A stretch of DNA of 64,000 nt from positions 2,784,001 to 2,848,000 of the forward strand of contig NZ_JAQNDL010000001.1 of assembly GCF_028368995.1 (NCBI RefSeq), given 5' to 3'. The notes beneath the pieces were generated by a model. It made no database searches. It was not told where the DNA came from and worked only from the letters and a program-made list of their open reading frames with translations. Source of the DNA: Nannocystis bainbridge. GTDB lineage: Bacteria > Myxococcota_A > Polyangia > Nannocystales > Nannocystaceae. The translations under genes and the position numbers were made by a program. The stretch's first letter is position 1, and each line of letters opens with the position of its first letter. Shown in pieces: positions 2,599 to 60,187 of the stretch.

Positions 2599-3786
2599 TC
2601 AGGTCGCCGCGCGCAGCCACAGCGAGCGCGAACGCAGCACCGCCGCCGTCATCTCCGCCATCGGCGACGCCAGCATCACCCGCGGGTAATCGAGCGGCCC
2701 CGCGTGGTCGCTGAGGAAGCGACACAGCAGGTCCGGCGGCAGGCGCTCGAACAGGTCGACGAACAGCGGCGGCCCGCGCCCGGGGGCGCGCTGCAGGTGC
2801 GCCAGCAGCACCCGGTCCATCGCCACCGCCGCCGCCGGCCGGGGCGCGGGCACCCGCGGCGGCGCACCTGGCCTTTCGAGCAGCTCGTGCGCCAGCAGCT
2901 GCGAGCTGCGCTGGATCGCCTGGAACGCGTAGCCGGTCGAGCCCTTGGCCAGGCCGCCGCGCAGGCCGAGGTGGATCACCCGCGGGCTGTCGCGCAGCGC
3001 CGCCGGCCGGCTCGTCATCGCGATCGCCCCGCGCTCGCGCCAGCGCACGGTCGGGTCCGTCAGCCCGTAGCGACTTCGCAGGTAGCCGCGCAGGTCGTCC
3101 TCGTAGGTCGCGTCGGGCAGGCTCTCCGGCGAGATGTACGTCGTCTCCACCAGCGCGCGGGTCGACGTGAACGGCAGCACGTACATGAAGTGGATCCCGC
3201 GCGCCTGGTCGACCGCGAAGTCCATCACCGTCGGGACCTCGGGGTCGAACACCGGCGCCGGCGCCTCGACCTCCCAGCCGACGAAATGCTGCAGCAGGTC
3301 GACCTCGTCGCCGCCGGGCGCGGGGGCCGGCGCCGGTCGGCTGTCGAACACCAGCCGCGCGCGCACCACCTCGGCGTCGGTCACCACCTCGCACCCGTCG
3401 CCGACCTCGCGGATCGCCCGCACCGCGCAGCCGCGGCGCAGCTCGATCTCGGGGAACTCCGCGAGTGTCCCGAGGGCCATGTCGTAAAAGACATCCGACG
3501 GCACGTGCTCGTAGGGGTGCCGCGTGGTGCCGCGGACCAGCGAGCGCTCGGCGTCGGCCACGCGCCAGCGGGTCCAGCGGTGGCGGACCGCCGCCGCGAA
3601 CGGGTGGTCGACGAAGCGCCAGTAGCACCACGTGCGGTCGCGGGCGTGCCGCGCGCGCGGCTCGATCAACACCATCCGCGGGCAGGCGACCTGGCGGCGG
3701 CGGGCCTGCAGGGCGATCTGCACCGCGAGGCTGAGGCCCGCACAGCCGGCGCCGGCGATCACGTAGTCCGCGCGCACTGGCGGCAT
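2599..3786 (-). CDS. crtY: Lycopene beta-cyclase (CrtY family)
   Basis: FAD-binding IAGAGCAGLSLA, DRTWCYW, MDF, FMYVLPF, ERGAIAM and GGLAKGSTGYAF motifs. Confidence 0.85.
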   Translation of the reverse strand: MPPVRADYVIAGAGCAGLSLAVQIALQARRRQVACPRMVLIEPRARHARDRTWCYWRFVDHPFAAAVRHRWTRWRVADAERSLVRGTTRHPYEHVPSDVFYDMALGTLAEFPEIELRRGCAVRAIREVGDGCEVVTDAEVVRARLVFDSRPAPAPAPGGDEVDLLQHFVGWEVEAPAPVFDPEVPTVMDFAVDQARGIHFMYVLPFTSTRALVETTYISPESLPDATYEDDLRGYLRSRYGLTDPTVRWRERGAIAMTSRPAALRDSPRVIHLGLRGGLAKGSTGYAFQAIQRSSQLLAHELLERPGAPPRVPAPRPAAAVAMDRVLLAHLQRAPGRGPPLFVDLFERLPPDLLCRFLSDHAGPLDYPRVMLASPMAEMTAAVLRSRSLWLRAAT

Positions 3787-3869
3787 CTATGGCCCATGCG
3801 GGCGCAGATCTCAAGCCGCGGCGATCTCCGCGAGCACGGCGCACGGGCCTTCATGATAACGTCGGCCGC

Positions 3870-58470: not shown

Positions 58471-58477
58471 TCGCCTC

Positions 58478-60187
58478 ATGGCCCGCGTCCTCGGCATCTC
58501 CGCCCACTACCACGACGCCGCGGCCGCGCTGGTGGTCGACGGCGAGGTCGTCGCGGCGATCCAGGAGGAGCGGCTGTCGCGGATCAAGAACGACCCCGGC
58601 CTGCCGCTCACCGCCGCCTTCGCGTGCCTGCAGCACGCCGGCCTCCAGCCCGCCGACCTCGACGCCGTCGCCTTTTACGAGGAGCCGTTCGCCAAGCTCG
58701 AGCGCGTGCTCGTCCACCTGCTGCGCCACCTCCCGCGGACCTGGCGGGCCTTCCCGCGCGCCCTCGCCGGCCAGCTCGGCAGCAAGATCTGGGTCCTCGA
58801 TCACCTCTCCGAAGGGCTCGGCGTCCCTCGCGATCGCGTGGTCTGCTTCGACCACCACCGCAGCCACGCCGCCAGCGCCCTGCTCGTCTCGCCCTACGAG
58901 CACGCCGCCGTGCTCGTCGTCGACGGCGTCGGCGAGGCCCACGCCACCACGATCTGGGACGGCCGCGGCGGCGACCTGCGCCTGCTCGCCAGCGTGGATT
59001 TTCCCCACTCGCTCGGCCTCCTCTACGCCGGCCTCACTGCGTACCTCGGCTTCGCCGTCAACGAGGGCGAGTACAAGGTCATGGGCCTGGCCGCGTGGGG
59101 CCAGCCGCGCCTGCGCGAACCATTCGCCAAAATTGTCCGCCTCACCGGCGACGGCGCCTACGAGCTCGACCTGGCCTGCTTCGCCCACATGAGCGACGCC
59201 GACCTCGGCTTCGGCCCCGCGCTCGAGCGCCTGCTCGGCCCGCGGCGCCCGCCCGGTCGCCCGTGGGACTTCACCCGCGACGACGACCGTCACTACGCCG
59301 ACGTCGCCGCCACCTTGCAGGCTGTCCTCGAGGACATCTTACTCGGGCTCGCCCGCAAGGCCCGGGCCCTCACCGGCGCCGACCACCTCTGCCTCGCCGG
59401 CGGCGTCGCCCTCAACGCCCTCGCCAACGCCCGCATCCAGGCCGAGGCCGGGTTCGCCCGCGTGTTCGTCCAGCCGGCCGCCGGCGACGCCGGCGGCGCG
59501 CTCGGGGCCGCCTTGCTGGCCGCCCGCGACCGCGGCGATCCGCGCCCTGGCCCGCTGCGCAGCGCCGCTCTCGGCCTGCCGATCGATGCCTCGCGGGCCC
59601 ACGCCATCGCCCGCGAGCTCGGCCTGCCCGCCCGCCGCGTCGACGACCCCGCCGCCCACGCCGCCCGCCTCGTCGCCGCCGGCAAGATCGTCGCCCACGC
59701 CCGCGGCCGCTTCGAGTGGGGCCCGCGCGCCCTCGGCCAGCGCTCGCTGCTCGCCTGCCCGCGCGACCCCGCCACCCGCGAGCGCATGAACCGGCTGATC
59801 AAGGAGCGCGAGCCGTTCCGCCCGTTCGCCCCCGCCGTCCTGGCCGAAAAGACAGGTGATTTCTTCGCCGCCGAGCCCGACGACATGACCCCGTTCATGA
59901 CCACCACCGCGCGCGTGCACGAGGCCGCGCGCGAGCGCCTCGGCGCCGTCACCCACCGCGACGGCACCGCCCGCCTGCAGACCGTCGCGGCCGAGCGCGC
60001 CCCCGAGCTGCACGCGGTGCTCACCGAGCTCGCCGCTCTCGGCCACGACCCCGTGGTCCTCAACACCTCCCTCAACGGCGCCGGCGAGCCGATCGTCGCC
60101 GGGGCCGAGGACGCGCTGGCGTTCTGGCTGCGCCACGGCGTCGACGCCCTGCTCGTCGACGACCTGCTGATCGAGAGGACCCCATGA
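58478..60187 (+). CDS. Carbamoyltransferase (NodU/CmcH/SxtI family)
   Basis: LGISAHYHDAAAAL, QEERLSRIKND, DHHRSHAASA, GEYKVMGLA, GGVALN, EWGPRALG, REPFRPFAP, LNTSLN. Confidence 0.95.
   Translation: MARVLGISAHYHDAAAALVVDGEVVAAIQEERLSRIKNDPGLPLTAAFACLQHAGLQPADLDAVAFYEEPFAKLERVLVHLLRHLPRTWRAFPRALAGQLGSKIWVLDHLSEGLGVPRDRVVCFDHHRSHAASALLVSPYEHAAVLVVDGVGEAHATTIWDGRGGDLRLLASVDFPHSLGLLYAGLTAYLGFAVNEGEYKVMGLAAWGQPRLREPFAKIVRLTGDGAYELDLACFAHMSDADLGFGPALERLLGPRRPPGRPWDFTRDDDRHYADVAATLQAVLEDILLGLARKARALTGADHLCLAGGVALNALANARIQAEAGFARVFVQPAAGDAGGALGAALLAARDRGDPRPGPLRSAALGLPIDASRAHAIARELGLPARRVDDPAAHAARLVAAGKIVAHARGRFEWGPRALGQRSLLACPRDPATRERMNRLIKEREPFRPFAPAVLAEKTGDFFAAEPDDMTPFMTTTARVHEAARERLGAVTHRDGTARLQTVAAERAPELHAVLTELAALGHDPVVLNTSLNGAGEPIVAGAEDALAFWLRHGVDALLVDDLLIERTP

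Follow-up and report, generated by a model that had tools for sequence, protein, structure and literature searches.

REPs are imperfect palindromes of 20-40 nt, extragenic by definition and copies of one sequence, and in Escherichia coli REP/BIME elements are bound by gyrase or IHF. The uptake sequences of Haemophilus (USS) and Neisseria (DUS) occur in thousands of copies, lie within genes in all reading frames and leave an imprint on the encoded peptides; their inverted pairs are enriched at gene 3' ends, and their positions are stable between relatives. The cyanobacterial palindrome HIP1 is found far above expectation, is written into coding sequence, is maintained across species and has a proposed link to a methyltransferase; to our knowledge, this 8-mer forms no phased arrays and is not concentrated at 3' ends. 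Finally, the met-boxes of MetJ are abutting 8-bp palindromes in fixed phase that take one dimer each, with an affinity that rises with the number of boxes.

The Nannocystis genome carries a palindromic word in about ten thousand copies, many of them in rows spaced by 14 bases. It resembles REP/BIME elements in its palindromic units of alternating orientation, its arrays and its siting at 3' ends and in convergent gaps, but differs in that only 10 of the 14 bases of a unit are specified, 39% of exact units are genic and the flanks are unrelated: 173 of 4464 array flanks matched the flank of a distant array at E<=1e-8, and the strongest matches inspected were the ends of neighbouring coding sequences, two of which resemble histidine-kinase C-termini. 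Nor was a RAYT transposase found, PF01797 giving no match in this genome (90.5% complete) while the control was positive in 6 of 14 reference genomes. Membership of the REP/BIME class was therefore rejected on extragenic location, cognate RAYT and shared sequence beyond the core. As with uptake sequences, the word is over-represented, lineage-specific, present in thousands of copies, located in genes in all frames, mirrored in peptides and positionally stable; it differs from them in being a dyad with an A/T-rich centre, in its strict 14-bp phase and in having 61% of its exact copies outside CDS. As with HIP1, it is a palindrome strongly over-represented both inside and outside coding DNA and conserved across species, and what sets it apart are the phased arrays and the 3'-end bias. 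Cooperative boxes of the MetJ type would be the mechanistic model that we favour, with the differences that the Nannocystis period is 14 rather than 8 bp, that there are thousands of sites instead of a small regulon and that these lie mainly past genes, not in promoters.

Unit, phasing and lineage range

The window (the whole 64-kb stretch of DNA that we analysed) is a local sample of a genome-wide, lineage-restricted and highly iterated Nannocystis motif. Its primary unit, which the preliminary description of this DNA had missed, is the inverted repeat TGTCC-N4-GGACA, with 1987 exact copies in the genome versus 0-16 at other spacings. The decamer GGACATGTCC is secondary: it has 956 exact copies, versus 0-48 for seven composition-matched palindromes, and just 196 of them are solitary, versus 1145 of the 1987 units. 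The 4-nt spacers vary freely among copies, with the logo YYRR, and the extended unit, enriched in A/T at its centre, reads ACATGTCC-YYRR-GGACATGT. Its outer ACATGT is a palindrome too, which lets successive units overlap head to tail and form rows that repeat strictly every 14 bp. Centre-to-centre distances accordingly peak at 14, 28, 42, 56, 70 and 84 bp (counts of 2135, 1041, 796, 409, 158 and 79, over a background of about 5-40), and when up to 2 mismatches are allowed per decamer, offset 14 has 2655 pairs whereas offsets 12, 13, 15 and 16 have 12-21. Below, the strength of an array is given as the mismatches of its successive 14-bp-spaced decamers to GGACATGTCC. All contigs carry units, at 91-371 per full 250-kb bin.

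All 10 other genomes analysed from the genus carry the motif, in 114-2090 copies; two sister genera have 87 and 161 copies, the remaining 28 relatives no more than 8 each, and a 20-bp form with 142 copies in this genome was absent from all 400 other genomes of the phylum. Arrays are restricted to Nannocystis and the two sister genera. In the sample of one sister genus, 20 of 25 sites lay in CDS, which makes up 81% of that sample, so that there was no intergenic enrichment, and no arrays were found in it; a 3'-end role, if real, would thus be an elaboration of Nannocystis.

PMC4517056 gives ATGT-N8-ACAT as the consensus for LmrR, PadR and LadR operators, a dyad that the extended consensus ACATGTCC-N4-GGACATGT contains exactly. 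This one sequence-based lead to a protein failed, as no PadR-domain gene was found in the genome (PF03551, no match at E<=0.001 among 13 candidates scored; control positive in 14 of 14 reference genomes).

Arrays between genes

Genes were called with our own codon log-odds caller (7981 genes, 83.4% coding; stops firm, starts approximate), and 1208 of the 1987 exact units lie outside the called CDS, in a fraction that makes up 17% of the genome. Arrays are concentrated at gene 3' ends, a feature that had likewise gone unnoticed. An array is present in 723 of 1422 convergent gaps, 861 of 4272 tandem gaps and 169 of 1447 divergent gaps, with densities of 4.92, 1.81 and 0.67 sites per kb, respectively, versus 0.28 in CDS; in tandem gaps the array centre lies at a median of 67 bp past the upstream stop and 189 bp ahead of the next start. 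Two results count against reading the 3'-end sites as binding arrays: (i) the contrast was much weaker in 480 kb sampled from a second Nannocystis genome (2.36 convergent versus 1.28 divergent sites per kb); (ii) of 102 tRNA genes, only 9 are followed by an array within 200 bp.

Within the window, five-unit arrays fill the 104-bp convergent gap 7573-7676 (array 7593-7658) and the convergent gap 21308-21411 (21334-21399), occupy a tandem gap just past the stop of the histidine kinase gene 15981-17390 (17401-17480), and span the stop of an exonuclease gene together with the 77-bp gap before the next gene (42710-42775). A four-unit array (52449-52500) lies in the convergent gap 52321-52529 and four two-unit arrays (57492-57742) in the tandem gap 57450-57762, while six arrays or single sites with 13-14 decamer units (37438-37911), located within a 175-bp tandem repeat present in 2.2 copies (37495-37886), follow the giant ORF 27921-37418. 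Exceptions to the genome-wide depletion of divergent gaps are a four-unit array (54896-54947) in the gap 54682-55196 and the arrays at 9067-9090, 9134-9143 and 9268-9291 in the gap 8898-9519, where a 66-bp local tandem repeat (9046-9250) also houses arrays.

Placement is stable between species. In 46 of 52 comparisons the orthologous gap again contained an array, and where the window has an array-less gap arrays were likewise absent in 65 of 74; the gaps orthologous to 7573-7676 hold 5, 5, 4, 5 and 5 units in five species. Intergenic cores are kept (identity 0.804) whereas spacers turn over (0.491). Judged from the sequences compared, this conservation would fit purifying selection and a motif-restoring drive, of the kind proposed for DNA uptake sequences, alike.

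The motif within coding sequence

The preliminary description held that the motif is written into coding sequences, and this turned out to be a rule for the whole genome. About 771-779 of the 1987 exact units fall inside called CDS, and the exact count of 771 compares with 25.7+-3.3 in six synonymous-codon shuffles (about 30-fold), as do 310 exact GGACATGTCC decamers with 35.7 and 494 offset-14 decamer pairs with 26.5. Sites occupy all three reading frames (64, 273 and 434), so that both the shuffle and the frame check that had been proposed came out in favour of the claim. Motif-compatible peptides exceed those of residue-shuffled proteomes by 826, approximately the number of CDS sites, and about 1030 arrays of at least two units lie fully within genes, uniformly placed along them. 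Constraint on the motif acts on the DNA itself, symmetrically with respect to strand, and overrides codon bias.

All places cited earlier were checked. In the ORF 3870-5204 (+), four phased slots (4427-4478; mismatches 3,2,2,2) carry in frame the codons GGA AGG ACA, CAT GTC CCT and GGA GGG CCA that had been pointed out; Pfam confirmed the other gene names, but the label 'ferritin-like' for this ORF has as its sole basis a sub-threshold Phenol_Hydrox match (E=0.024), and we leave its family unassigned. The arrays reported for the cusB-like gene 11085-12506 (+; HlyD_D23, HMBD), the TPR Ser/Thr kinase gene 21412-24318 (-) and the N-terminal region of the PDZ/CarboxypepD_reg protein 43321-46188 (-) were recovered at 12011-12048 (3,3,0), 23066-23089 (2,1) and 46043-46080 (2,0,3), and the same genes contain a single decamer with 1 mismatch (11474-11483), a further site (23261-23284; 1,3) and a second pair (45046-45069; 3,1), respectively. 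Three other sites described as tandem do carry the motif, but in weaker form: 3466-3493 in the lycopene cyclase gene (crtY, 2599-3786, -) is one 2-mismatch decamer between a TGTCC and a GACAT half-site, below the array threshold used; 23936-23963 in the kinase gene is one weak TGTCC-N4-GGTCA unit; and the RNase_T exonuclease gene 41866-42717 (+) has one 1-mismatch decamer (42142-42151) with a poor partner. Additional pairs lie at 13791-13814 (2,0) in the AcrB/CusA-like gene 12525-15815 (+), where the encoded peptide is E-H-A-P-K-D-M-S, at 35259-35282 (3,2) in the 3165-aa ORF 27921-37418, and at 57322-57345 (3,2) in the gene 55197-57449.

Orthologues, whose comparison had been suggested, reveal how such sites came about. 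The cusA site arose by GAG>GAA and CAC>CAT together with Leu>Met: six close genomes read GAA CAT ... GAC ATG TCC, whereas congeners about 84% identical have GAG CAC ... GAC CTC instead. The 4427-4478 array is kept in four named Nannocystis species and absent where the protein diverges outside the genus. The intragenic motif is made and kept by point substitutions, comprising synonymous G/C>A/T and amino-acid changes, and these motif-making substitutions are the whole cause of the local loss of GC3 noted earlier. That loss is real: for 822 intragenic arrays, each at least 150 nt from gene ends, GC3 is 0.692 at motif core positions and 0.566 in the 4-nt spacers, against a background of 0.941, and in the flanks it climbs from 0.794 (1-6 nt) through 0.832 (7-12 nt) and 0.905 (13-18 nt) to about 0.947 from 19 nt onwards, so that the dip is over within about 18 nt of the array ends. 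The A/T enrichment claimed for non-consensus positions is genuine in spacers (A+T about 0.40-0.58 at spacer positions adjoining seed units, in a genome of 72% G+C with intergenic G+C of 0.694); in flanks it mostly tracks the motif register, falling on the next spacer slot and the next half-site, with the consensus A at flank position +9 in 34.5% of cases and non-consensus A/T raised about 2-fold in the unit slot that follows. All three of the A/T runs that had been quoted exist without being general, since across three IGR classes an A-run of at least 4 within 16 nt downstream accompanies 2.9-3.2% of arrays versus 1.6% in the background, and such a T-run 1.4-2.0% versus 1.4%.

Between species, unpreferred A/T third positions inside cores have an identity of 0.806 (n=139), and those elsewhere one of 0.342 (n=4881; Fisher OR 8, p=2e-28); for the window against five species the values are 0.884 and 0.320. 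These conserved positions, the orthologues and the excess peptides support one of the two explanations offered at the outset, namely that selection on the DNA overrides codon bias. The other, a mutational or repair shadow, found no support and is weighed below; the earlier interpretation as a whole is thus partly supported. The motif provides a clean and quantifiable case of a non-coding DNA signal that beats both a very strong codon bias (GC3 0.94) and protein sequence, some 770 exact CDS sites being paralleled by some 830 excess motif-compatible peptides, and scans for codon usage, horizontal transfer or selection would misread its A/T-rich patches.

Candidate roles of the arrays

With a probability of slightly over one half, we propose that the arrays are cooperative binding sites for a putative symmetric dsDNA-binding protein. 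Such a dimeric protein would bind units cooperatively and coat arrays chiefly at transcription-unit 3' ends, most of all in the gaps between convergent genes, where the coated arrays would probably act as a boundary, be it a transcription roadblock or insulator or a supercoil barrier; the single and double sites scattered in genes would be weaker members of the same binding landscape. A bolder version, possible but doubtful, is that Nannocystis marks the ends of its transcription units by sequence-programmed arrays of a putative lineage-specific dimeric protein that polymerises on 14-bp-phased dyads, and separates convergent genes by a supercoil barrier or a roadblock that works in both directions; as three 14-bp units equal four helical turns, successive dimers would then spiral around the DNA. 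If true, Nannocystis would possess a bacterial equivalent of the roadblock terminators and insulators of eukaryotes, used in place of hairpin-plus-U terminators in a genome of 72% G+C, and it would need the binding landscape so much that codons and amino acids have been rewritten within genes at hundreds of places (about 770 exact sites).

We consider it unlikely that the arrays instead act as hairpins in RNA or single-stranded DNA, in which neighbouring units would pair and terminate transcription or shield mRNA 3' ends, like E. coli REP. Arrays do lie directly past stop codons and in convergent gaps, the intragenic array 4427-4478 folds, as do intergenic ones, into hairpins well below shuffled controls (z -2.4 to -4.9), and arm complementarity is in small but significant excess (7.08 versus 6.88 Watson-Crick pairs, z=16.7; C:G at arm pair 3:12, 146 observed versus 86 expected). 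A small class of arrays consists of extended perfect palindromes, spacers being fully complementary in 3.4-3.7% versus 0.8-1.1% (about 2.5% above expectation), and tRNA genes have an array downstream in 9 cases versus 2 upstream. Hairpin stability, 3'-end location and the excesses of complementary arms and spacers count against binding by a dsDNA protein. Against an RNA role, however, tandem gaps oriented by transcription lack a sense-strand G-U asymmetry (337 wobble-preserving changes, A>G and C>U, versus 305 mirror changes, p=0.22) and retain a symmetric spacer logo; stable tetraloops are not favoured (28 TTCG versus 38 CGAA); and deviations in the arms are mostly uncompensated (at pair 3:12, 1889 one-sided versus 249 Watson-Crick double changes). 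Among 25 two-substitution units compared between species there were no compensatory events, with 3 at paired positions where 2.8 are expected by chance, and of the 4 spacer positions that would face each other in multi-unit hairpins, 1.08-1.31 can pair, versus 1.06-1.08 under the null. No U-tract follows the arrays (T-run of at least 4 within 16 nt downstream in 1.9% of tandem-gap arrays versus 1.4% in the background), the arms are just 5-8 bp in the isolated units, many arrays are spread evenly within genes, and the sequence itself, beyond its pairing, is kept at thousands of unrelated places. Intrinsic (Rho-independent) terminators were rejected as a class for the arrays: hairpins are present, but U-tract and compensatory change are missing.

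Similarly low odds attach to a self-propagating signal, either an uptake sequence or a repair- or methylation-linked, HIP1-like word, that would spread by biased conversion of near-matches into matches wherever tolerated, which would favour convergent gaps most and promoters and genes least. The lineage-specific distribution in thousands of copies over all contigs, the sites in all frames with their peptide imprint, the density that tracks the expected constraint gradient and the even spread over coding and non-coding DNA in the sister genus sampled all speak for it; yet known uptake sequences are asymmetric single words, not strictly phased dyads, and both the 7-fold convergent/divergent difference and the exact filling of short convergent gaps, with a unit number kept in five species, look beyond tolerance. 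The shadow, in which A/T enrichment would be a side effect of a bound protein that locally drives mutation towards A/T or keeps repair out, appears quite improbable: although spacers are A/T-rich and evolve fast and the next unit slot shows extra non-consensus A/T, the dip is gone by 19 nt and follows the motif register, of all third positions the A/T ones in cores are the best conserved and not the most mutable, and spacers prefer a definite pattern (YYRR) instead of A/T at large. We regard a REP- or MITE-like mobile element copied by a transposase as very improbable indeed; the siting and the alternating half-sites recall BIME arrays, and some arrays are contained in the 66-bp and 175-bp tandem repeats, but no Y1_Tnp/RAYT gene was found in the genome, flanks are not shared, spacers differ among copies and intragenic sites were born by point substitution rather than insertion.

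The unusual architecture of strictly phased dyad arrays, the sharp phylogenetic boundary and the preference for convergent ends make three questions directly testable: the putative abundant DNA-binding factor, the limits of transcription units or topological domains in very G+C-rich myxobacteria without obvious U-tract terminators, and the way in which such motifs invade coding sequence. In practice, arrays serve as landmarks for 3'-end annotation in Nannocystis.

The decamer GGACATGTCC is, letter for letter, the consensus decamer of p53 work (half-site RRRCWWGYYY). Among the literature matches listed for it, none is on its face about bacterial DNA, and the P53 domain had no match in the genome, though its control was positive nowhere. 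Nannocystis decamers are spaced by 14 bp instead of 10 bp, and here it is the other dyad that forms the primary unit; we regard the identity as a coincidence.

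Abundance, phasing and placement of the motif

The decamer GGACATGTCC occurs 956 times in the source genome (11.05 Mb, 71.5% G+C, 5 contigs), compared with 0-48 copies of seven palindromes matched to it in composition, and the inverted repeat TGTCC-N4-GGACA (the dyad, or unit) is commoner than the decamer, with 1987 exact copies versus 0-16 at spacings 0-3 and 5-11. Solitary copies make up 1145 of the 1987 dyads versus 196 of the 956 decamers. The motif is real and strictly phased: centre-to-centre distances peak at 14, 28, 42, 56, 70 and 84 bp (2135, 1041, 796, 409, 158 and 79 cases; background roughly 5-40), and decamer pairs with at most two mismatches each number 2655 at an offset of 14, versus 12-21 at offsets of 12, 13, 15 and 16. 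The extended dyad reads ACATGTCC-YYRR-GGACATGT, and rows of 14-bp period form because adjacent 20-bp sites have the palindromic ACATGT in common. Genome-wide, 4294 arrays or strong singles were called, comprising 10,516 units with at most 11 in one array, at a threshold with an estimated false share of a few percent. Even spacing of sites along the chromosome was ruled out, the gaps being over-dispersed (CV 1.46). No description of the motif in bacteria was found in the literature searched, in which subscription journals lay mostly outside reach. GGACATGTCC is also the human p53 consensus half-site, an identity that we treat as coincidence; among the papers listed as containing the decamer, none is on its face about bacterial DNA.

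A self-trained caller based on codon log-odds gave 7981 genes covering 83.4% of the genome, with firm stops and approximate starts. Arrays are found in 723 of 1422 convergent gaps, 861 of 4272 tandem gaps and 169 of 1447 divergent gaps, and dyads with at most one mismatch occur at 4.92, 1.81 and 0.67 per kb in these three classes and at 0.28 per kb in coding sequence. In tandem gaps the median array centre lies 67 bp past the upstream stop and 189 bp ahead of the next start. A 480-kb sample of a second Nannocystis genome (G001) keeps this order with a weaker contrast (2.36 convergent, 1.43 tandem, 1.28 divergent and 0.31 coding per kb). The 3'-end picture is weakened by that smaller contrast, by the window itself, where three of five divergent gaps carry arrays, and by the tRNA genes, of which only 9 of 102 are followed by an array within 200 bp, versus 2 preceded by one.

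Sites within coding sequence

A preliminary description of the window, which spans C1:2784001-2848000 of the source genome, had proposed that the motif is written into genes and coincides with a local loss of GC3 bias; all the places that it named were inspected. Coding sequence contains 771 exact dyads versus 25.7 ± 3.3 in six synonymous-codon shuffles, and likewise 310 exact decamers versus 35.7 and 494 phased decamer pairs versus 26.5. Dyads occur in every frame (64, 273 and 434), the rarest being the one that requires Cys. GC3 was measured at the 822 intragenic arrays whose distance to either end of the gene is 150 nt or more. Against a background of 0.941, cores have 0.692 and spacers 0.566; flanks have 0.794 at 1-6 nt, 0.832 at 7-12 nt and 0.905 at 13-18 nt, and are at background from 19 nt, so that the loss is real and reaches about 18 nt. 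With GC3 differing from background and counts exceeding the codon shuffle, the proposed observation therefore stands, and it holds genome-wide. The dip follows the motif register, with an A/T share of 0.16-0.46 in the next spacer slot and the consensus A of the next half-site present at +9 in 34.5%; non-consensus A/T elsewhere in the next unit slot is only about 2-fold in excess. A/T enrichment beyond the consensus, as first described, thus applies to spacers and next-slot flanks, whereas the A/T runs quoted in its support are not typical. Intragenic arrays do not cluster towards either end of a gene, being evenly distributed along its length. Longer genes carry them more densely, at about 0.15 per kb for lengths of 2-5 kb compared with 0.056 per kb below 600 bp.

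Pfam matches agreed with the earlier identification of crtY, cusB, the TPR kinase, the RNase_T exonuclease and the PDZ protein among the genes of the window, and confirmed an AcrB/CusA-type pump gene (12525-15815, + strand); the ‘ferritin-like’ label of ORF 3870-5204 has a sub-threshold hit as its sole basis. The pump gene illustrates how a site can arise. Six close genomes read GAA CAT GCC CCC AAG GAC ATG TCC, whereas GAG CAC GCC CCC AAA GAC CTC AGC or similar is found in congeners of about 84% identity, and in more distant relatives the sequence at the site is unrelated; the site was therefore not inserted but built up from a pair of synonymous G/C>A/T substitutions, one Leu>Met replacement and a switch of Ser codon. 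Counts of dyad-compatible peptides are 147, 585 and 1164 by frame (ordered by the dyad frame counts) versus 11-14, 282-285 and 770-778 in residue-shuffled proteomes, an excess of 826 that about equals the number of real sites. Amino acids have thus been changed to write the motif, as the Leu>Met change and the 826 surplus peptides both attest. The four-unit array of ORF 3870-5204 is common to four named Nannocystis species, and its segment is not conserved outside the genus.

Proposed duplex binding and competing readings

We favour, at a probability of roughly 0.55, cooperative protein binding to arrays of duplex DNA sites that probably serve as boundaries at 3' ends. Binding of this kind by a symmetric dimer would account for the strict phasing, for arms of specific sequence and for a pyrimidine-purine centre enriched in A/T. 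MetJ on tandem met-boxes is the classical case of such binding, and the Nannocystis arrays would parallel it in the cooperative engagement of symmetric dimers. The preliminary description had offered two accounts of the GC3 loss, selection on the DNA overriding codon bias, or a mutational or repair shadow cast by a bound protein. In alignments of 584 kb of the source genome with 480 kb of G001, A/T third positions outside the motif are short-lived (identity 0.342, n = 4881), whereas those in motif cores are conserved (0.806, n = 139; OR 8, p = 2e-28); for the window aligned with syntenic DNA of five congeners, the values are 0.320 elsewhere and 0.884 in cores. This conservation, together with the codon-shuffle and peptide excesses, supports DNA-level constraint and speaks against the shadow, which, with a dip that ends about 18 nt out and in motif register, we regard as very unlikely. 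Intergenic identity is 0.804 in cores versus 0.491 in spacers, and G/C third-position identity is 0.633 in spacers versus 0.856 in the background; spacers turn over between species. Arrays nevertheless keep to the same intergenic gap even after its alignment is lost: where a window gap has an array, so has the orthologous gap in 46 of 52 species comparisons, and where it has none, none is found in 65 of 74. The convergent gap 7573-7676 holds 5, 5, 4, 5 and 5 units across five species. A drive that restores the motif may be compatible with these data, although an uptake-sequence or HIP-like form of it seems to us improbable.

That the arrays act as hairpins is, in our estimate, about as improbable. 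They fold well (z -2.4 to -4.9), and arm complementarity is in small overall excess (7.08 versus 6.88 pairs, z = 16.7), yet signatures of selection on pairing are weak or missing. Wobble-preserving changes on the sense strand show no excess (337 versus 305, p = 0.22), a UUCG bias is absent (28 versus 38), deviations of the arms from consensus are mostly one-sided, and no compensatory change between species was seen in 25 informative units. The spacer is symmetric (YYRR) even when oriented by transcription, and where multi-unit hairpins would call for paired spacers, these are close to random, except in a 2-3% class of extended palindromes. Canonical terminators were rejected, no U-tract following the arrays. 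A mobile repeat of the RAYT/REP kind is scarcely credible: no Y1 transposase (RAYT) gene was found in the genome, a match to the flank of another array exists for only 173 of 4464 flanks, and spacers differ freely among copies. Extended perfect palindromes with pairing spacers occur in about 2-3% more arrays than expected genome-wide. They may form a hairpin subclass of their own or stem from repair that generates palindromes. Within ORF 3870-5204, the array at 4441-4487 folds into a hairpin of roughly 18 bp.

As to the factor that would bind such arrays, the PadR-family operator given in PMC4517056, ATGT-N8-ACAT, is contained in the extended Nannocystis consensus, but PadR was rejected in that no PadR-domain gene was found in the source genome. 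A p53 domain, sought since the decamer is a p53 half-site, had no match in this genome, but a control search was equally silent, so that this negative carries no weight. Candidates for an autoregulated factor are 164 small genes (at most 320 aa) preceded by an array within 200 bp.

Relatives and other repeats of the window

The dyad is present in all ten other Nannocystis genomes (114-2090 copies each) and in two sister genera (87 and 161), with at most 8 copies in the other 28 relatives searched; the 20-bp form was found in none of 400 other genomes of the phylum, versus 142 copies in the source genome. Dyad-like sites with at most one mismatch number 25 and 20 per 200 kb in the sister genera G013 (C17:1-200000) and G011 (C24:1-200000; G+C only 61%) and 3 per 400 kb in G019, a relative outside these genera. 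A 200-kb control stretch of the source genome has 59, which puts the sister-genus density at roughly a third to half. When every 5-mer dyad with a spacing of 0-8 was scanned de novo over 200-400 kb from each of the three relatives, nothing stood out to a comparable degree, and only codon-periodic G+C-rich dyads emerged. The sister-genus sites are isolated, with no 14-bp neighbours in either genus and no intergenic enrichment in G013, which suggests that Nannocystis elaborated an older dyad into the gene-end arrays.

Several tandem repeats of the window include the motif: a 66-bp repeat in three copies (9046-9250, in the divergent gap 8898-9519) has a dyad pair in its unit, and a 22-bp repeat in 3.9 copies (27487-27572, unit AACCTGTCCCTTCGGCCATCAA) has a TGTCC half-site. 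Similar repeats of a 36-bp type occur elsewhere in the genome. The 3165-aa ORF at 27921-37418 has many proline-rich tandem repeats and a single DUF1508 match, and only its ends align to congeners; GC skew is very strongly negative (-0.26 to -0.39) at 28-36 kb. Downstream, a 175-bp repeat in 2.2 copies (37495-37886) has motif units beside A/T runs in each copy, and the gap 37419-38231 holds 13 units versus only 0-3 in five congeners. The PDZ/CarboxypepD_reg gene (43321-46188, - strand) has no syntenic match of at least 400 bp in five congeners, whose alignments skip from about 43300 to about 46430. The gene appears to be an insertion specific to this lineage, yet two motif arrays are already present in it.
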